38,876 bases of DNA from Promethearchaeota archaeon (lineage in GTDB: Archaea; Asgardarchaeota; Lokiarchaeia; Sigyniarchaeales; SOKP01): positions 1 through 38,876 of the forward strand of contig JBHLMP010000035.1 in NCBI GenBank assembly GCA_048938025.1, read 5' to 3'. Positions 10,544-29,781 of the stretch are shown here, one piece after another. A program made the translations under genes and the position numbers. The number at the start of each line of letters is the position of its first letter. Position 1 is the first letter of the stretch. The notes beneath the pieces are model-generated. The model did no database searches and had not been told where the DNA came from. It was given only the letters and a program-made list of their open reading frames with translations.

Positions 10544-10622
10544 GAAAAATATCTAAAAAAGAATAATTCTGTAATATATATTGATATAATAAATGATTTA
10601 AAAAAATTGTTTTTAGTTATTT

Positions 10623-10645
10623 AAAAAAAAGAGATATCTTAAAAA
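10623..10645 (-). terminator. Oligo(U) terminator of the 5S precursor
   Basis: T5 and T8 tracts on the minus strand immediately after the 3' arm of the processing stem. Confidence 0.55.
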
Positions 10646-10661
10646 CCACATAAACAAGCGT

Positions 10662-10812
10662 TTCCGGGTTCCCGAACCACCTCGAAAACAGTTGGTTTTT
10701 CGGATGGGACCGGGTATTTTCCTCGAGTACCATGACCGTGAGCGAACTCACAATTTGCCATTTCCCACTGATCGCAACAGCAGTACTATTGGACAACGTA
10801 AACGAGTTTAAC
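10662..10812 (-). rRNA. rrf: 5S rRNA gene, circularly permuted (3' half 10812-10747, UUCG linker 10746-10743, 5' half 10742-10662 with a 28-nt insert)
   Basis: The reordered sequence folds as 5S: helix I CUCACGGU/AUUGUGAG, helix II GUA..CGAG/CUCG..UAC, helix III CCGG/CCGG with CCCAU..GAA loop C, conserved CCGGAAGUUAA, loop E AGUA/GAA, helix IV CUGCUG/CAGUGG. Length is 119 nt after removing the linker and insert. Confidence 0.88.
10670..10697 (-). other. Candidate 28-nt BHB/BHL intron in 5S loop C
   Basis: Central helix CCGA/UCGG, bulges AAA and GAA, inner helix ACCA/UGGU. Confidence 0.6.
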
Positions 10813-10863
10813 TTCCGGCGCTTAGCTAGCAGCTGATTATGTGGTATTAAAGTATACTAACCA

Positions 10864-10871
10864 TTTTATAA
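10864..10871 (-). promoter_or_regulatory. TATA box for the 5S precursor
   Basis: TTATAAAA on the minus strand, roughly 20-25 nt upstream of the 5' arm of the processing stem (10845). The AT-rich background weakens the call. Confidence 0.5.
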
Positions 10872-10990
10872 GTACGGTTATTTTATTAAAAAATACCTTC
10901 CTATATGGTTATAAGTAAATGAAATAATAAAGACTAGTAATTAAATTTTTTCATAATAAAAGATTAACTTTAAAAGGAATAAATTGAGAG

Positions 10991-11560
10991 GTGTTTGTAA
11001 AGGTGATATTTCAACTGATAATGCAAGATGCACCTTGGTATCAGTATTTAGTAAATATTTTTATTGTAATTATTGGAAGGTTACTTGACATACTTAGTAC
11101 GAGATATGTATCAAAAGAACTTAAACTGGAGACAAATAAATTAGCAAGGCGAATAGGGTGGCGAGGTGTGATAATAATGCAAATTCCTATCATTGTTTTA
11201 GGAGCTCTGGATATTTATCTAGCATTTTTTATCTTTATATGGTCTCTTTTTTTATTTGCTAATAATATTTTGGGAAGCTGGAATACTAAGCAAGTTGGTG
11301 AGGAGCAATATTATGAAGATCTTAAATTACAGTTAAAACAAACTAAGAGATGGCAAATTATTCTAAGCGAAATATCATATCTTTTAACATTTACAGTAAC
11401 AGGGATTTTTATTATCGTGTTCTTATTTGTTTTTAATAATTTCATAGCAATTATCTTCATATCATTAGCGTTAATCTGTCAAGGTCTGCTAACTAGCGTT
11501 AGATCCATGAAATACTTATTTGATTTAAAGAAAGAATCTCAAAAAAATAATGAAAATTAA
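10991..11560 (+). CDS. Hypothetical multi-pass membrane protein
   Basis: Several hydrophobic segments; LDILST...ETN motif. Start may be the ATG at 11021. Confidence 0.75.
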   Translation: MFVKVIFQLIMQDAPWYQYLVNIFIVIIGRLLDILSTRYVSKELKLETNKLARRIGWRGVIIMQIPIIVLGALDIYLAFFIFIWSLFLFANNILGSWNTKQVGEEQYYEDLKLQLKQTKRWQIILSEISYLLTFTVTGIFIIVFLFVFNNFIAIIFISLALICQGLLTSVRSMKYLFDLKKESQKNNEN

Positions 11561-11567
11561 ATTTAGG

Positions 11568-13715
11568 TTAATTTAAACGTTCTATTCGGTCTAAAATACG
11601 TGTATATTTTTTAATCCCATAAACTACAAAAATTACGGAAATTGCTACTATACTTATCATTATAATCAAAGCAATATTTAGCATATAGTTTATTATTGAT
11701 TTAGGAATTTGAAATGTATAAGATTCATTGTAAAAAACATTGGTATTATTAGCATAATCTCGAGCAACGATCATATACGAATAATTACCTGGTTCTAATT
11801 TGTCAATAATAAATTCAAAATTCCTCTCATCTTCTTGAATACTATTCGATAGTCTATAAGATGTAAAATTGTTAAACTGATCCTTAGAAATTAATAAATA
11901 TACACTTTCAATCCCTGATTGATTATCATAAATTTCTATATTGAAACACATCTTATCTGAAACTGAAGGATTTTCTGGAACATACTCTAATCGAGAAAAT
12001 TCAGGTTTATTATCATCTGAAAGCGTAGTAAAGTTAAAGTAAGATGGAATTAAATTGTGCCCTGTAATAGTTACATTGTATGTTTCATTAACTTGTGCCG
12101 GGACACGCAACTTTGCGATACCCTCTTTATTAGCATATGAAGTATAATATTTTCCGTCAGTAGTTCTAAAATGAACTCTCGCATATGGAATTATATTATT
12201 AGAAATGTCTCTAATTTCAATAGAAACTAATTGACCTTCATAAATATTTTGATTAAAGGGATTACCTGCTTTTTTTGGCTTATTAGTGTAGATATCAACC
12301 TCAGGATCCCCTAAAAGACAATAAGTTAATAAATTTTTACGCTCGAAATCATAATAAGTTGCCCCATCTCCTCTTTTATAGTAATCACTATTTATATATG
12401 AAACTTTAGAATCATATAATGCCCTGCCTTGCTGAAACTTTTTTTCTTCAAAAAATTCCTTCCAAAATAACTTGGCATTTCCGCGGTTTAATTTTTCAAA
12501 GTTATAATCATCTTCATAATACCAACTTACTCTAAGTGCTCCAATAAATCCAATTGCACCAGCGCTCAATTGCTTTATTAGAGTTTCTCCAATATTATTA
12601 TCACTATGATCATAACAGGAGGTAGAACAAGCATCTATATAAACTAATGAAGGCATATTAATATTAGAACTTGAACTAGCATCAGCAGACGTATATCCTG
12701 CGGTACTCGGATTACGATAATAAGCTGTTGGGGCTCCATGTCCGGCCATAATGACTGTTGAATAACCATTATTGAACTGATTCCTGAGTTCTATACGTGT
12801 AAGATTTCCTGCTTCTTCTACTAAATGAGTAGAATTCATCTCTAAATTCACATAATTTTGTATAATATAACTTGTTAACCAGCTTTCATATTCTCCATCA
12901 GTTCCATAAACGTGATATTGGGAGATACCTCCTGCTAATAACATTCTATTCATCCAATCATCTAGATAAGGATCCATTTCATATTTTAAAGTCTTATTTA
13001 CCATTATCTCAAGTTCTTCAGCAGTATCAGCAGGAAATCTACCAACATATACCTCTGGAACCCATGAAATTTCATCATACCAATATAAATTATCTTGTGG
13101 AGCTTCCCCCCATCTTGAATCTTCATCACTATTCCAAGTACATAGAAGATCCAAATCACCTGTGAGATCTGCATAATAATAATCTGTAGGTTTGTAATAA
13201 TTATCCATTCCTGAAGCTTCGCTTCCACCATATCTTACAACATCAGGGTTATATACTTCTCTTATAGGAATTAAATCATTTTGAGCATCCCCAGCTAAAA
13301 GAACCCAGCGAATATTTTCTTCATCATAATATGATTTTATCATATTTCGAATCTTTTCGGGGTCATCTCTGCCAGGATAATCCGAAAAATTGCTCAAAAT
13401 TATTGTTTTAACTCCTTTTTCATTTTTCCAATCCGCTAAAGGTTTTAAAGTATCAATAAAATCAGTGTTGTTTGGTGCTATAATTAACATCTCAATTTTT
13501 GGATAATACCAATCATTTTCCAATGATGAATAATCAATTTCAGGTAAAAATGATAAATCAATTTCAGGATTACTGCTATAAAGATTCAGTTCTTCTGAAA
13601 TATAAGAATTATTATAAACAGCAAAGTATTGACTACAACTAAGAAAAATCGATGGAAACAATAAGAATAGAATAATAAATAAATATACAAATTTTTTAGG
13701 AGAAGACCTTAGCAT
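11568..13715 (-). CDS. Peptidase C25 (gingipain family), secreted and C-terminally membrane anchored
   Basis: LADWKNEKG, VLLAGD, PTDYYYADL, VGRFP, catalytic AGHG and DACS, LLGDP; N-terminal signal-like segment and C-terminal TM helix. Confidence 0.9.
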   Translation of the reverse strand: MLRSSPKKFVYLFIILFLLFPSIFLSCSQYFAVYNNSYISEELNLYSSNPEIDLSFLPEIDYSSLENDWYYPKIEMLIIAPNNTDFIDTLKPLADWKNEKGVKTIILSNFSDYPGRDDPEKIRNMIKSYYDEENIRWVLLAGDAQNDLIPIREVYNPDVVRYGGSEASGMDNYYKPTDYYYADLTGDLDLLCTWNSDEDSRWGEAPQDNLYWYDEISWVPEVYVGRFPADTAEELEIMVNKTLKYEMDPYLDDWMNRMLLAGGISQYHVYGTDGEYESWLTSYIIQNYVNLEMNSTHLVEEAGNLTRIELRNQFNNGYSTVIMAGHGAPTAYYRNPSTAGYTSADASSSSNINMPSLVYIDACSTSCYDHSDNNIGETLIKQLSAGAIGFIGALRVSWYYEDDYNFEKLNRGNAKLFWKEFFEEKKFQQGRALYDSKVSYINSDYYKRGDGATYYDFERKNLLTYCLLGDPEVDIYTNKPKKAGNPFNQNIYEGQLVSIEIRDISNNIIPYARVHFRTTDGKYYTSYANKEGIAKLRVPAQVNETYNVTITGHNLIPSYFNFTTLSDDNKPEFSRLEYVPENPSVSDKMCFNIEIYDNQSGIESVYLLISKDQFNNFTSYRLSNSIQEDERNFEFIIDKLEPGNYSYMIVARDYANNTNVFYNESYTFQIPKSIINYMLNIALIIMISIVAISVIFVVYGIKKYTRILDRIERLN

Positions 13716-13817
13716 GTTTTATCAAAACTAAAGAATTAATAATCATTTATTTATTATTAGTAATAGAAATGTATTAATAAGAATATATTGATTTTAAAAA
13801 AAAGAAACGATTAATGA

Positions 13818-14045
13818 ATGCCGATTAGATTTAATTATTGTCCCCATTGTAAAGGAAAAATCATGTTTAAAATAGAGTTAGAAGATATTGATACAAGTCA
13901 ATATCCTGCTCCAGTTTATATTATTCACAAAGATAAATCTTGTGGTAAATTATCAACTTTCTATGTTGATAGTTTACTAAGAATTTCATATAAAGAACTT
14001 GAAAAAAAACCTGGTGGTATTAAAACTATCGGGACAATAATATAG
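13818..14045 (+). CDS. Small putative zinc-binding protein
   Basis: CPHC...H.x4.C pattern in a 75-aa ORF. Confidence 0.7.
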   Translation: MPIRFNYCPHCKGKIMFKIELEDIDTSQYPAPVYIIHKDKSCGKLSTFYVDSLLRISYKELEKKPGGIKTIGTII

Positions 14046-14202
14046 TCCATCTAATAACCAATTATATAATTTATTATTTCAAATTCCTAATCCATTAGAA
14101 GATTTAAAAGAATTTCTCATCAACTTCTTAAAAGGTTTTAATGGTCTATGCTACAATATCTTCCGATTTGGAAACCTAATACTTTTTTTCATTTTTTTAT
14201 TT

Positions 14203-14412
14203 ATGCGACTTAATCTATTAGTTAATGAAAAGTGTATTGAAAATCATGAAAAAATTTATGCTAAAAATATTGAATATGTTAAAACGGAAGGTAAAAAAAG
14301 AAAATGGCAAAACCTATTAAAAGAAAAATCTCTTCCAAAATTAACTAAAGAGTATGGTGTAGGTAGAAATACAATCAAGTGATTATGTGATGAGTGGGAG
14401 GTTGATATCTAA
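14203..14412 (+). pseudogene. Degenerate helix-turn-helix protein fragment with in-frame TGA
   Basis: Hand translation ...KEKSLPKLTKEYGVGRNTIK*LCDEWEVDI*; the HTH-like pattern continues across the TGA at 14380-14382. Confidence 0.45.
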
Positions 14413-14543
14413 TCTAATAAGAAATAGAAAATTAAATTCTATTAGGTTAATTTAATTAGCTTTTTATTTCATCCTAATATGTATTTAAAACATATTATCT
14501 AAAATTCGTAAAAAATATTTATAATTGAGAATGATAAATCATA

Positions 14544-16117
14544 ATGGTTTATAATTTAGAAGATATAAAAGGCATTGGTAATGAAACAGCAGAGAGATTA
14601 AGATCAGCAGGTATTAATTCAATTGAAAAGCTAGCTGAATTATCACCTAAAGAATTATTAGGATTAAAAATAAAAGGTATCGGAAAAGCAACGGCATCTA
14701 AATATATTGAAAATGCTAAAAACTTACTTGAAACCGAAAGTGTAAAAGTAAAAGAAGAACTCCCAAAAGTTGAAATACAAGCTATAGCATCAATTAAAGT
14801 GCCAGCTAAAAAAGGACCTAATCTTAAAGAGCTAATTGCACAACAAGCGGAATGTAATATTGGGCTCGTAGGTCATGTAGATCATGGAATGATTCTGCCA
14901 TTTAGCCAATTCCCATAAAAACTACATTAGTTCAGGCACTTACAGGAGATTGGACAGATAGGCATTCAGAGGAGCAAGAACGTGGTATTTCTATAAAATT
15001 AGGTTATGCGAATGCAACAATTCTTTACTGTCCTACGTGTGACCTATATTTTACAAAATATATGGTTGAACGAGAAAGAGTAAAGGGTCAGCCACGATTC
15101 ACATGTTTAAAATGTAAAGATCAATTAGAGTTTAAAAGAAATATTTCTTTTGTTGATGCACCGGGGCATGAAATATTAATGGCGACTATGTTAAGTGGAG
15201 CTTCTTTGATGAATGGAGCATGTTTATTAATAGCAGCAGATGAAGATTGCCCACAACCCCAAACAAGGGAACACTTAGAGGCCTTAAATATCGCCGGGAT
15301 ACAGAATATTATTATCATTCAAAATAAAATTGACGCTGTTTCAAAAGAACAAGCTTTAGAAAATTATAAACAAATCAAGGAATTTGTTAAAGGAACTATT
15401 GCTGAAAATGCTCCAATCATACCTGTCTCAGCTGTTTTTAACTCTAATATAGATCTTATTGTAAGAGCATTTGAAGAAATAATTCCTTCTCCAGAAACCA
15501 ATGAAAATGAATCATTTCAGTTTTTAATTGCAAGATCATTTGATATTAATCGTCCCGGAAAAGAAATTCAAGATTTAAAAGGAGGAGTAATAGGCGGTTC
15601 TGTATTAAAAGGAAAAGTAAATATTGGGGATCGAATAGAGATACGCCCTGGTATTCACATAAAAAATAATTATATGCCGATACAATCAACTATCGTAAGT
15701 ATAAGTCAAGGGAATAATAATTTTGAGAATGCTAAACCTGGCGGTTTAATAGGATTAGGAACTAAATTGGACCCATCCTTAACTAAAGGAGATCATCTAA
15801 TAGGGCAATTAGTTGGAAAACCAGGAACATTACCGGAAATTCTTACTGAAGTGGAATTGAAAGTTAATCTACTTGAACGTGTAATCGGTACTGAGATGCA
15901 AATCAAAGTTACTGAACTTAAACATAACGAAAAATTGTTATTAGTTATTGGAACCGAAAAAACAGCTGGAACAGTTACTAAAATTTTAAAAAATTCGTTT
16001 ATCCTTAAATTAAATCCTCCTATTTGTATCCCAGAAAATTTTATATTTGTTATATCCAGAATAATAAATAGACGTTATAGATTAATTGGATATGGTGAAA
16101 TCTTTAATCAAAACTAA
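14544..16117 (+). CDS. eif2g: Translation initiation factor aIF2 gamma with N-terminal HhH domain; join(14544..14889,14919..16117), 514 aa
   Basis: NIGLVGHVDHG / KTTLVQALTGDWTDRHSEEQERGISIKLGY, DAPGHE, QPQTREH, NKID, RSFDINRPG and GGLIG motifs; the reading frame is interrupted by a 29-nt insert in the P-loop. Confidence 0.93.
14890..14918 (+). other. Candidate BHB mRNA intron (29 nt) in eif2g
   Basis: Central helix AUGG (14884-87)/CCAU (14913-16), bulges AAU and AAA. Cutting after the second bulge nucleotide gives CAT GGA AAA ACT ACA = H G K T T in frame. Confidence 0.85.
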
Positions 16118-28341: not shown

Positions 28342-29781
28342 TTAGGATTTTGAAATAACTAATTTTACAAGTTCTGCTGTTGTCTGACAATAAATTCTTG
28401 CTAATGATTTCCTTTTAGCCTCACATATAATACGAATAATAGGTTCTGTATTTGAAGGATGGATCAAAACGAACCACTCGTTATTTTTACCAAATCTAAG
28501 GTCCCAACCAACTTGCGAAACAATTTCTCCTTCATCAATCAGTTCTTTCTTGGTCTGATTTATAATAAAATCTACATTATGTTCCAAAACATCAATACTT
28601 TCTCTATGAGCATAATATTTTGGTAGTAAAGAAACTAAACTGGAAATCTTTTCTTTATTGGATATTATAAGATCTACAATTTTAGCGGCTGCAAATATTC
28701 CATCTCTAGTATTATTAAAAGGGGGAAACATAACACCACCACAAGATCCTTCTCCACCAAAAATCAAGCATTTTTCCTTACTTAACTTACACTTTTGTAA
28801 TAGAGAATACATTTCCTCAGATAAAAATCTCTCCCCTATGGGTGTTCGAATAATTTGAGCATTATATCTTTTAGCAAGAACTTCAAACATTAAAGATGAC
28901 GCTAAATTTGTTATAAAGATTATTTTATCATAATTGGCATTATATTTTTTAAGATAATTCTCAGTAATAAGTGCTAAACCAACATCTTCAGGATAACACA
29001 CCCCATTATCTCCAATAATAGCCAATCTATCAGCATCACTGTCATGGGCAAATCCTATATCATAGTCACCTTGCCTAACTTCCATTATTAAGTCATTTAA
29101 ATTCTTTTCAATAGGTTCTATTTCTCGAGGAAATTTGGAATTATCCAATAAATCATTATTGATTACTTTAACTTTACATCCCATTCTTTCAAGTACTTGA
29201 GGAGTAACACACTTTCCTGCTCCCGCTCCAGTATCAATTACAACATTTAAATTATTTTGCTCTCTTAATTGCTTTAAATTTATATATTTAAATAATTTGT
29301 TGACATATTCGGGTATTGGATTCAGATTTACTATTTTTTGGCTTAAATAAGAATTATTAATGTGGTACGAATCCAAATTAATGTCATTTAAGTTAGTAGA
29401 AATTTGATAAAGATCGGAGGGACCTAAATAAGTTCTTTTTGAGAGAAGCTTTATACCATTCCATTCTTGTGGATTATGGGAGCCAGTTATGATAATCCCT
29501 GCTGGAATATCTAAACTATTTCTTGCATGAATAATAATTGGGGTGGGACAGACTCCAACATTGGTGATATTGAAATCAGTTGCGATTAAACCTTCAATAA
29601 ATGCTTTTTCAATTATATCTCCACTTGGTCTAGTATCCTTTCCTATTATTACTCTCTTATCTTTATTATTAAACCATAACCCAAAAGAAATAGCTATTTT
29701 TTTAACAATCTCAAAATTTAAGTTTTTCCCTACAATTCCTCTAATTCCACTAAAAGTAAAAATTAGATTATTAGTTTGCAT
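28342..29781 (-). CDS. Alpha-D-phosphohexomutase (PGM/PMM/GlmM family)
   Basis: SGIRG, TGSHNP, DSDADR, GGEGS and PSNTEP motifs. Confidence 0.93.
   Translation of the reverse strand: MQTNNLIFTFSGIRGIVGKNLNFEIVKKIAISFGLWFNNKDKRVIIGKDTRPSGDIIEKAFIEGLIATDFNITNVGVCPTPIIIHARNSLDIPAGIIITGSHNPQEWNGIKLLSKRTYLGPSDLYQISTNLNDINLDSYHINNSYLSQKIVNLNPIPEYVNKLFKYINLKQLREQNNLNVVIDTGAGAGKCVTPQVLERMGCKVKVINNDLLDNSKFPREIEPIEKNLNDLIMEVRQGDYDIGFAHDSDADRLAIIGDNGVCYPEDVGLALITENYLKKYNANYDKIIFITNLASSLMFEVLAKRYNAQIIRTPIGERFLSEEMYSLLQKCKLSKEKCLIFGGEGSCGGVMFPPFNNTRDGIFAAAKIVDLIISNKEKISSLVSLLPKYYAHRESIDVLEHNVDFIINQTKKELIDEGEIVSQVGWDLRFGKNNEWFVLIHPSNTEPIIRIICEAKRKSLARIYCQTTAELVKLVISKS

Follow-up and report, generated by a model that had tools for sequence, protein, structure and literature searches.

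The window, that is, the whole 38,876-nt stretch of DNA analysed (Promethearchaeota archaeon, contig JBHLMP010000035.1, assembly GCA_048938025.1), harbors a permuted 5S rRNA gene on the minus strand, at about 10844-10646, and on the plus strand an aIF2-gamma gene broken by a 29-nt insert (Table 1; all coordinates are window positions). The host genome is a draft in 88 contigs with a completeness of 96.7%, and the genomes compared with it are metagenome bins with a contamination of 3-9%. The sequence anatomy, the exact restoration of products, conservation, covariation, presence or absence in relatives and the enzyme genes were computed directly and are reported below as such.

Table 1. Features of the 5S rRNA unit, the aIF2-gamma gene and the three BHB sites in the window
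Feature	Position	Strand	Basis
TATA-like box TTATAAAA, putative promoter of the 5S unit	10864..10871	minus	about 20-27 nt upstream of the leader stem
Outer processing stem, 5' strand CCACATAA, pairing with 10646-10653	10837..10844	minus	paired in MFE and centroid structures
Small leader hairpin between outer stem and BHB 1	10824..10834	minus	alignments
BHB 1, leader half: AAGCG 10823-10819, CCGG 10818-10815, AAG 10814-10812; predicted cut 10813/10812	10812..10823	minus	
5S piece P1, 114 nt	10699..10812	minus	sister-family profile, covariation, model R1
Loop-C BHB intron (BHB 2), 30 nt, inner hairpin AACCAAC..GGTGGTT	10669..10698	minus	presence/absence in relatives
5S piece P3, CCCGGAA, 7 nt, mature helix III 3' strand	10662..10668	minus	joined sequence equals type-2 contiguous sequence
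BHB 1, trailer half and outer stem: AAA 10663-10661, CGCTT 10660-10656, TTATGTGG 10653-10646; predicted cut 10662/10661	10646..10663	minus	
BHB 1: central CCGG 10818-10815 with CCGG 10667-10664; bulges AAG 10814-10812, AAA 10663-10661; outer helix AAGCG/CGCTT		minus	sequence reading
BHB 2: central TCCG 10704-10701 with CGGG 10674-10671 (one G.U); bulges AAA 10700-10698, AAC 10670-10668		minus	register matching relatives
aIF2-gamma exon 1: N-terminal helix-hairpin-helix extension, P-loop GHVDHG, ending with base 1 of the Lys codon	14544..14889	plus	Pfam HHH_5, E 5.9e-12
aIF2-gamma BHB intron (BHB 3), 29 nt, in-frame TAA	14890..14918	plus	frame, relatives
aIF2-gamma exon 2, (K)TTLVQALTG... to stop codon	14919..16117	plus	Pfam GTP_EFTU (profile 44-188 of 188) and GTP_EFTU_D2
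BHB 3: central ATGG 14884-14887 with CCAT 14913-14916; bulges AAT 14888-14890, AAA 14917-14919		plus	sequence reading

The 5S rRNA unit and its relatives

The TATA-like box may be the archaeal promoter of the 5S unit, and a block AAATAACCG.ACTTATAAAATGG is conserved upstream of the unit in type-1 relatives. The outer processing stem is conserved within the genus, with other complementary pairs taking its place in other genera and families (read by eye), and the leader hairpin, AGC..GCT in the host, becomes TAGC..GCTA, AAGC..GCTT or GTAGC..GCTAC in relatives (alignments, by eye). Along piece P1 the order runs from the 3' side of helix III through the 3' strand of helix II, helices V/IV, helix I closed by TTCG (10746-10743) and the 5' strand of helix II to the 5' strand of helix III and most of loop C. 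The initial annotation had read the 5S as a normal gene interrupted by two introns; it is instead a circularly permuted gene, its 3' part standing before its 5' part, its natural ends connected by a short linker and its leader and trailer forming a BHB, so that site 1 is the closing (circularisation) junction. A run of T (10645-10641) directly follows the trailer stem, and model R1 scores 116.4 bits at 10710-10818.

The identity of the gene does not emerge from Rfam: a search of the window gave zero matches, RF00001 had none at E<=10 across the 96.7%-complete host genome, and the sequence in genomic order does not reach the RF00001 gathering score. We therefore state colinearity with canonical 5S, after the predicted processing, for our own profile and not for the Rfam model. 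That profile, derived from 12 canonical 5S genes in the sister family, finds two swapped pieces in the genomic order, 47-115 (21.1 bits) and then 3-44 (9.8 bits), and a single match, positions 3-115 with 50.7 bits, once the pieces are rejoined in silico; the score is 36.2 bits if the loop-C intron is kept. Covariation supports helices I-V around the three-way junction. Over 26 distinct sequences, the 33 pairs are 95.7% paired (32-46% with slid partners), and double changes occur at 17 of them; the observed values were reached in none of 500 shuffles. Among relatives, the capped helix I is 100% paired, its 8 bp always closed by a TT.G loop of 4 nt. When the precursor is folded by MFE, the leader CCGG pairs with a helix III strand instead of the trailer; covariation was used in place of MFE folding, which is a poor guide at these loci.

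A full-length R1 match marks the permuted 5S in 116 of 130 family genomes, representing 12 of the 13 genera, and the other 14 genomes have no R1 match. Canonical RF00001 passes its cut-off in just 2 of 81 family genomes, both with matches that look bacterial, and in 12 of the 14 genomes of the sister family. For two genomes of the genus assembled as single contigs, the sole RF00001 signal stays below the cut-off and is located on the permuted locus, and type-2 relatives score only 25-33 bits with this model. The permuted 5S also reaches other Asgard families.

Splicing substrates and maturation of the 5S rRNA

All three sites display two 3-nt bulges on opposite strands with a 4-bp helix between them, which is the substrate form of EndA, and none has the strict hBHBh' form with helices flanking both sides, i.e., they are relaxed motifs. 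A weak or missing flank was found at each, just as the initial annotation had noted: the flanking helices are weak, BHB 1 lacks an inner helix, and in BHB 3 the outer helix is interrupted and the fold is not more stable than that of shuffles (z -0.36). The three sites which that annotation proposed are all present, with site 2 read one base off. Its register there (CCGA/TCGG, bulges AAA/GAA) exists in the sequence and was rejected, as canonical cutting would leave two extra A compared with insert-free relatives; the register one base upstream is preferred because it reproduces the sequence of those relatives exactly. As a result, five of the six reported bulges stand, one at site 2 being AAC (all six begin A-A or purine-A), and the perfect 4-bp central helix holds at sites 1 and 3, site 2 including one G.U pair.

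No enrichment over shuffled controls was seen for the bare motif, taken as a perfect 4-bp helix with purine-A in both bulges and a flank of 3 bp or more on one side: positions 10601-15000 contain 66 such sites on both strands, against 65.2 +/- 9.0 in shuffled sequence, and 47 of 100 block shuffles reached 66. It is the restored products and the relatives, rather than motif frequency, that mark the three sites as real. The proposal that they are splicing-endonuclease substrates is sustained in that the predicted removal makes the 5S colinear and the aIF2-gamma frame intact, with presence or absence and compensatory changes in relatives pointing in the same direction.

The cut is predicted after the second base of the bulge, a rule compared here only with the sequences of relatives; for the predicted products, cutting there and joining restores the functional sequence. 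In 48 of 49 distinct complete 5S loci, two 3-nt bulges flank a 4-bp helix and an outer helix of 3 bp or more is present, all so placed that cut-and-join restores the common loop-C sequence. The break point is the first in 20 loci and the second in 28, and these two positions, 16 nt apart, give an identical joined 5S sequence. Since the 48/49 test selects its solutions by the consensus restored, only the register controls are independent: registers with unequal bulges work in at most 3 of the 49 loci, and exact restoration by cutting after bulge base 2 occurs in 16 of 27 type-2 loci, other cut positions giving 0. A diagonal control, in which both cuts were shifted equally, proved uninformative, as the same sequence is restored where the bulges share bases, and was replaced by another register control. 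The loop-C intron is confined in the locus alignment to L001-L003 and missing from L004, L005, L006, L011 and L013.

The host genome encodes the enzymes in question, namely two EndA-family proteins (PF01974/PF02778; 201 and 200 aa) and one RtcB, which answers the call of the initial annotation for typing them; Asgard archaea have been described as possessing an (alpha-beta)2 EndA with an L1 insert (PMC5829648). Cleavage, ligation, circularity and use of the product by the ribosome are deduced from the sequence, and the route we propose is as follows. A precursor of about 200 nt would comprise the leader, the 3' two-thirds, helix I capped by UUCG, the 5' third with the loop-C intron, the last 7 nt and the trailer. 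Leader and trailer would pair to form BHB 1, EndA would cut each bulge behind its second base, and RtcB would join both ends of the excised piece (10662 to 10812), with the 30-nt loop-C intron removed through BHB 2 (10699 joined to 10668). The end product would be a 121-nt 5S RNA with loop C and helix III intact and no free ends, most probably closed covalently into a circle and used in this form as the mature 5S. On the whole we are highly confident that the permuted 5S rRNA gene and the aIF2-gamma gene are two obligatory substrates of the archaeal tRNA-splicing machinery, with the circle as the most likely mature form of the 5S.

Could the working 5S nonetheless be linear, its loop-C ends unjoined (permuted or nicked), or the circle an intermediate reopened elsewhere, e.g., in the helix I loop? 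Precedents exist, in that archaea are described as classically reopening circular 16S/23S intermediates and Pyrococcus has a 23S that is permuted and linear (PMC12918454, PMC7758197), and the brown-algal mitochondrial 5S is permuted in its final RNA (PMC4267664). We nevertheless consider a linear form unlikely. Two break points that yield one joined sequence are sensible only if the ends are ligated; otherwise loop C would be interrupted at differing places in sister species. The constant cap and the fully paired helix beneath it would be unexpected for an excised spacer, and the SRP RNA of Thermoproteus is reported to remain circular (PMC4731332). The covalently closed circle thus stays our preferred reading.

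P-loop introns in translational GTPases

The intron of aIF2-gamma, of which the host genome has a sole copy, lies at GHVDHG|K, separating the P-loop codons for Gly and Lys. Removal of its 29 nt in silico gives an uninterrupted protein, and splicing (14889 joined to 14919) would restore the P-loop as GHVDHG-K-TTLV. The gene thereby shows what is seen in pre-mRNA introns of the cbf5 type: a broken frame, a BHB at the boundaries, a conserved protein restored and insert-free alleles in relatives. The same codon carries an insert in 6 of 22 named relatives and is free of it in 16. In the family as a whole, 29 of 131 genomes have the intron and 102 are without it. The central helix is 96.4% paired, with a compensatory change from ATGG/CCAT to ACGG/CCGT, and the inner-helix sequences of P-loop introns are swapped among relatives for other complementary ones.

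That translation components are recurrent targets, as had been suggested, is confirmed in relatives: all 16 further matches of the intron model that were inspected are same-site introns, in EF1-alpha (8), EF2 (5), aIF5B (2) and an EF2-like paralogue (1). In these five different genes, aIF2-gamma included, the introns measure 29-33 nt and conserve the BHB geometry, and the relatives G041 and G042 have up to three interrupted translational GTPase genes per genome.

The further suggestion that other apparently frameshifted genes of this lineage contain introns found no backing in the host genome, where the four other P-loop GTPase genes are uninterrupted. A genome-wide ORF-joining scan over 9,327,216 cut pairs showed no excess for the canonical BHB register over registers shifted by 1-3 nt (29,585 canonical against 29,010-29,532 shifted for an inner helix of at least 2 bp), and none in any length class, that of 27-32 nt included (280 against 255-276), although a few true cases would stay hidden because adjacent genes dominate the background. 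Ranking by contiguous helix length was dropped, as it did not recover the true aIF2-gamma solution. A split-gene search narrowed 719 neighbouring open-frame pairs to 93 in which both frames have at least 100 codons, and then to 62 with at least 30 start-free codons and an overlap of at most 110 nt. Two of these were set aside: a pair on contig 10 that duplicated another by overlap, and that of aIF2-gamma, used as reference. None of the 60 pairs tested by Pfam had one domain split across frames, in a search blind to introns near gene ends and to in-frame, stop-free introns, and the aIF2-gamma reference alone showed the split.

In the initial annotation the sites were read as possible regulatory switches through which EndA and a ligase gate the assembly of ribosomes and the initiation of translation. 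The 5S and aIF2-gamma are indeed predicted to rely on the same enzymes, and the several interrupted GTPase genes of G041 and G042 would suit such a scheme; we nevertheless judge it very improbable. There is no regulatory element to be seen, and the aIF2-gamma intron appears dispensable, given the intron-free alleles of close relatives, including one with 95% protein identity, and of most family genomes. Furthermore, the tRNAs of the lineage hold introns at many positions (preprint 10.64898/2026.10.13.758758), and for this reason selfish or neutral spread fits better than control. That the loci are decaying pseudogenes or assembly errors, with functional 5S and aIF2-gamma genes in unassembled DNA or the insert bypassed in translation, might be argued from the 88-contig draft and from the frequent lack of rRNA genes in bins, and is hardly credible in view of a permuted architecture shared across the family, single-contig genomes included, with compensatory changes, of inserts fixed in length and geometry in five genes, and of intact aIF2-gamma exons (115 + 398 codons) with no second copy in the genome.

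Comparison with known systems

Permuted tRNAs end up linear, RNase P and tRNase Z having excised the stretch that connects the natural ends; in the 5S a tight tetraloop stands in for the natural ends, and no processing site is apparent there. In other respects the 5S locus is organized like the permuted tRNA genes of Cyanidioschyzon merolae and Thermofilum (PMC3978253, PMC3218864), with the 3' half first, a leader/trailer BHB and a circular intermediate made by splicing enzymes (predicted here). It likewise resembles the permuted, circularised SRP RNA of Thermoproteus (Plagens et al. 2015, PMC4731332), an essential structured RNA from a permuted gene with new ends beside a functional loop; the differences are that the 5S rRNA, a part of the ribosome, is concerned here, across a whole family (116/130) and in other Asgard families, with a circular form that is predicted from the genes, with at least two break points among relatives and extra BHB introns within the gene. 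The brown-algal mitochondrial 5S also has helix I closed by a hairpin, but it is described as ending at the three-way junction and staying permuted, without cutting and rejoining (PMC4267664), while in the present gene the ends fall within loop C or helix III and would be ligated. Circular pre-16S/23S and the circular 23S of archaeal ribosomes arise through BHB excision in a processing stem followed by ligation, and the circular form may there be the mature rRNA (PMC12918454). Those 16S/23S genes are colinear, in contrast to the permuted 5S, and the same source describes 5S rRNAs as not known to undergo circular BHB processing.

As for the introns, that of aIF2-gamma has its counterparts in the cbf5 pre-mRNA of Crenarchaeota (PMC2738675), a BHB intron in a protein-coding transcript with gain and loss among relatives, and in the 5'-UTR intron of Haloferax HVO_1309 (PMC7714728), which interrupts the transcript of a protein-coding gene; the latter report gave cbf5 as the only other mRNA case by 2020. 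Unlike these two, the present introns belong to an Asgard host and to other genes, and occupy one homologous P-loop G|K position in five paralogous translational GTPases, at 29-33 nt. Our literature search, in a collection without most subscription journals, returned no report of archaeal permuted or circular 5S or of BHB introns in GTPase genes.

The broader reading, for and against which we see about equal grounds, is that throughout one Asgard family, and here and there in other Asgard lineages, the ribosomes hold a covalently closed circular 5S that the tRNA-splicing enzymes make from a permuted gene and that, in addition, a mobile BHB mini-intron of 29-33 nt spreads among protein-coding genes of this family by recognition of the conserved P-loop codons of translational GTPases. 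If so, the archaea most closely related to eukaryotes would have an intron that propagates in mRNAs with neither spliceosome nor ribozyme. The introns described here would extend the known protein-coding BHB introns from one gene (cbf5) to five essential translation GTPases with a common insertion point. Such a shared point is the pattern expected of intron mobility, and it therefore bears on intron spread in the lineage nearest to eukaryotes. For the permuted 5S, the reading predicts an rRNA that is circular by necessity in the ribosome. In a sample of 150 genomes of the phylum, RF00001 lies above its cut-off in only 49 (0 of the 24 sampled from the host family); standard tools would miss the 5S in many Asgard genomes because the gene is permuted, and annotation and genome-quality pipelines would wrongly report that such genomes lack 5S and carry frameshifted aIF2-gamma, EF1-alpha, EF2 and aIF5B genes.

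The permuted 5S rRNA gene

The 5S locus of the window is a circularly permuted gene. The canonical Rfam 5S model (RF00001) gave zero matches in the whole genome at E<=10, and control genomes do match; within the AT-rich window (G+C about 29%), Rfam detected no RNA family and ARAGORN no tRNA. The 5S sequence runs on the minus strand from 10844 to 10646, its parts in swapped order. A profile of 12 canonical sister-family 5S genes finds two matches on the genomic sequence, profile positions 47-115 coming first (21.1 bits) and 3-44 second (9.8 bits), and when the sequence is cut and joined in silico and opened in the helix I loop, a single match covers positions 3-115 at 50.7 bits, with 36.2 bits scored if the loop-C insert is retained. 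An 8-bp helix I capped by TTCG (10746-10743) stands in place of the natural 5' and 3' ends, and the product predicted after excision and splicing has 121 nt.

Table. Order of elements in the 5S unit, read in the RNA sense
Element	Position or sequence	Strand	Remark
TATA-like box	10871-10864	minus	
Outer stem strand, leader side	CCACATAA	minus	after TATA-like box
Small leader hairpin		minus	between outer stem and BHB 1
BHB 1 leader half	AAGCG-CCGG-AAG	minus	
5S piece P1	10812-10699	minus	
Loop-C intron, 30 nt	10698-10669	minus	
5S piece P3	10668-10662	minus	
BHB 1 trailer half	AAA-CGCTT	minus	
Outer stem strand, trailer side	TTATGTGG	minus	followed by T run

The three bulge-helix-bulge (BHB) sites claimed by the initial annotation are all in the sequence, BHB 1 of the 5S locus and BHB 3 of aIF2-gamma exactly as it described them. 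For BHB 2, the helix CCGA/TCGG that it named does exist, but the sequence of relatives that have no insert is reproduced by a register shifted one base upstream, in which helix TCCG/CGGG is flanked by the bulges AAA and AAC. The bare motif has no statistical weight, 66 being counted between 10601 and 15000 versus 65.2 +/- 9.0 in shuffles; the weight comes from what excision restores and from the relatives.

Break points, distribution and the case for a circular 5S

A DNA search located the 5S locus in 23 of the 24 genomes of the genus, and every copy in a 25-locus alignment has the permuted order, with two break points. Type 1, that of the window, retains ..TCCCATCCGAACCCGGAA at the 3' end, and type 2 has CCATCCGAACCCGGAA at the 5' end instead; under one rule, cutting after base 2 of the 3-nt bulges and then joining, both give the same junction sequence. 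Forty-eight of 49 distinct complete loci (20 type 1, 28 type 2) have the 4-bp helix and its 3-nt bulges, together with 3 bp or more of outer helix, exactly where required, and the sole failing locus, from another genus, is beyond the mismatch limit set. Unequal-bulge geometries work in at most 3 of the 49, and restoration of type 2 is exact in 16 of 27 loci with the cut after base 2 and in none with any other cut position. In a set of 26 distinct core sequences, 95.7% pairing was counted for the 5S secondary structure (slid controls, 32-46%), with double changes in 17 of 33 pairs, which no shuffle reached. The loop-C intron occurs in three loci of the 25-locus alignment and is missing from five other type-1 loci. 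Six relatives (loci L006, L011 and L021-L024) carry a distinct BHB intron, also of 30 nt, in the loop of helix IV; by eye, that of L021 has a central helix TTGC/GCGA and a 7-bp inner helix, and its excision joins TTGCGA to TCT...

Searched over 150 genomes of the order, a covariance model of the permuted 5S found a full-length match in 116 of the 130 that belong to the window's family, at scores of 74-127 bits and across 12 of its 13 genera. The one genome of a third family matched at 53.5 bits, with a different break point by eye, and the sister family gave a weak 38-bit match in just 1 of 14 genomes. RF00001 exceeded its cut-off in 12 of those 14 and in 2 of 81 genomes of the window's family; the latter two matches (L111 in genome G076, 80.8 bits; L123 in G093, 51.9 bits) look like bacterial-type 5S by eye, probably from contaminating contigs, and both genomes carry the permuted gene too. 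In a phylum sample, RF00001 passed its cut-off in 49 of 150 genomes, clustered in a few families (25/26, 17/19 and 3/5, with 0/24 in the window's family), and 101 of the 150 had no match at E<=1e-5. Full-length permuted genes were also found in four genomes of four other Asgard families (L260-L263), one of which, by eye, has a clean BHB (central CGTG/CACG, outer CCACGG/CCGTGG) and restores the loop-C sequence. Outside the window's family (L264/L125 in the third family; L260-L263) the capping tetraloop is UACG or UUCG, and one break point lies closer to helix II. The permutation may have arisen by duplication and partial deletion, for which the tandem arrays of canonical 5S in three sister-family genomes (G032, G039 and G055; 2-3 copies, about 360-920 nt spacing) offer a fitting and plausible starting point.

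On this reading EndA would cut the transcript, RtcB would join it, and the 5S would stay circular in the ribosome. Given that processing occurs, we lean towards a circle as the mature form, since both break points lead to a single joined sequence and helix I is always capped by a tetraloop. The nearest precedent is the SRP RNA of Thermoproteus (PMC4731332), both permuted and circular, and excision with circularisation is presented in a 2026 paper (PMC12918454) as known for archaeal 16S and 23S but not 5S rRNAs. Our full-text literature search, whose scope left most subscription journals outside, returned nothing on archaeal permuted or circular 5S or on BHB introns in GTPase genes.

P-loop introns of translational GTPases

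The aIF2-gamma frame at 14544-14889 finishes with GHVDHG plus one base and then reaches TAA, and another frame resumes from 14919 as (K)TTLVQALTG..., 398 residues long. Positions 44-188 of the Pfam GTP_EFTU profile fall within exon 2, and no second aIF2-gamma was found in the genome, the window's gene being the only one. According to PMC7714728 (2020), BHB introns in mRNA had until then been reported only for cbf5, besides the case which that paper describes. A 29-30-nt insert interrupts the same codon in 6 of 22 named Asgard relatives and is absent from 16, one of them at 95% protein identity; all five outgroups have an uninterrupted gene. The inserts vary in sequence and keep the BHB, with central helices ATGG/CCAT, ATGG/CTAT or ACGG/CCGT and inner hairpins of unrelated sequence; among 12 pairs tested, 91.7% are paired and 5 show double changes, values reached by 0 of 500 shuffles. 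With a covariance model of the intron region, for which 87-90 nt and at least 66.9 bits denote presence and 58 nt and at most 54.9 bits absence, 29 of the 131 family genomes scored as carrying the insert, and none of the 12 matching genomes of the sister family did.

Weaker matches of this model on other contigs turned out to be like introns at the same Gly-Lys junction of other translational GTPases. A broader version gave 45 matches in 39 of the 150 genomes of the order, all 87-91 nt long and all in the window's family: 29 in aIF2-gamma, 8 in EF1-alpha, 5 in EF2, 2 in aIF5B and 1 in an EF2-like paralogue. Each of the 16 outside aIF2-gamma was inspected, and the frame is restored in all; one EF2 intron is, by eye, shifted by one base (helix TGGT/GCCA). 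The combined alignment has 97.6% pairing in the central helix and double changes at 4 of 4 inner pairs. Twenty-six other families of the phylum, sampled with 125 genomes, gave no match, and the other four P-loop GTPase genes of the window's genome have no interruption. The exon contributes one of the two central-helix strands (..CAYGG), which the DHG codons hold fixed, so an intron bearing its complement could fit any of these genes, and the intron may have spread in this way.

The aIF2-gamma protein is extended at its N terminus by about 100 residues (14544-14860), in which Pfam places a helix-hairpin-helix domain (PF14520, E 5.9e-12); the outgroup proteins of Thermococci and Methanothermococcus start a little ahead of the P-loop. 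At 14041-14412, in the frame of 13801, an open frame with no listed start reads ..KEYGVGRNTIK, an in-frame TGA and LCDEWEVDI, and may be a gene remnant or contain a recoded stop.

Splicing enzymes and genomic context

Typing of the host EndA and RtcB, as suggested in the initial annotation, revealed two EndA-domain proteins (201 and 200 aa, each with both EndA domains) and one RtcB in the draft genome (3.52 Mb, 96.7% complete, 5.1% contamination; the window is contig 39). The first EndA protein best resembles the B-chain subunits of heterotetrameric enzymes from Crenarchaeota and the second is more distant; by eye, the Tyr/His/Lys positions, which we take to be catalytic, are kept in the first, and the His is missing in the second. 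ARAGORN predicts 14 uninterrupted tRNA genes genome-wide and, with the intron search on, 32, 18 of them interrupted and only 16 amino acids covered; many are probably multiply interrupted and hence missed. These counts agree with the heavy interruption of Asgard tRNA genes described in a 2026 preprint (10.64898/2026.10.13.758758), and PMC5829648 assigns Asgard archaea the broad-specificity (alpha-beta)2 type of EndA.

The proposal that other frameshifted genes contain introns was not borne out in this genome, where a genome-wide ORF-joining scan, whose background is dominated by adjacent genes so that a handful of true cases would be invisible, and a split-gene search, blind to introns near gene ends and to in-frame stop-free introns, yielded none besides aIF2-gamma. 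Nor did we find evidence that EndA gates translation components, and a required regulatory role is disfavoured because close relatives have intron-free alleles. The closeness of the three sites reflects conserved gene order, since 5S and aIF2-gamma adjoin in many family genomes, about 1-4 kb apart on the same contig (e.g., contigs C43 of G089, C66 of G136 and C28 of G024; 10662-14946 in the window). Between them, the window encodes a 715-aa family C25 peptidase (11568-13715, minus strand; PF01364, E 2e-56).

Elsewhere in the window's genome, the conserved domain starts within a few codons of the open-frame start in GatB (contig C27, locus L154), Fer4-ETF-alpha (C88, L193), a DUF6513 protein (C8, L137) and an N6 DNA methylase (C79, L183). 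The first ATG/GTG/TTG lies 43-100 codons deeper in these frames, and the four genes likely use non-canonical start codons.
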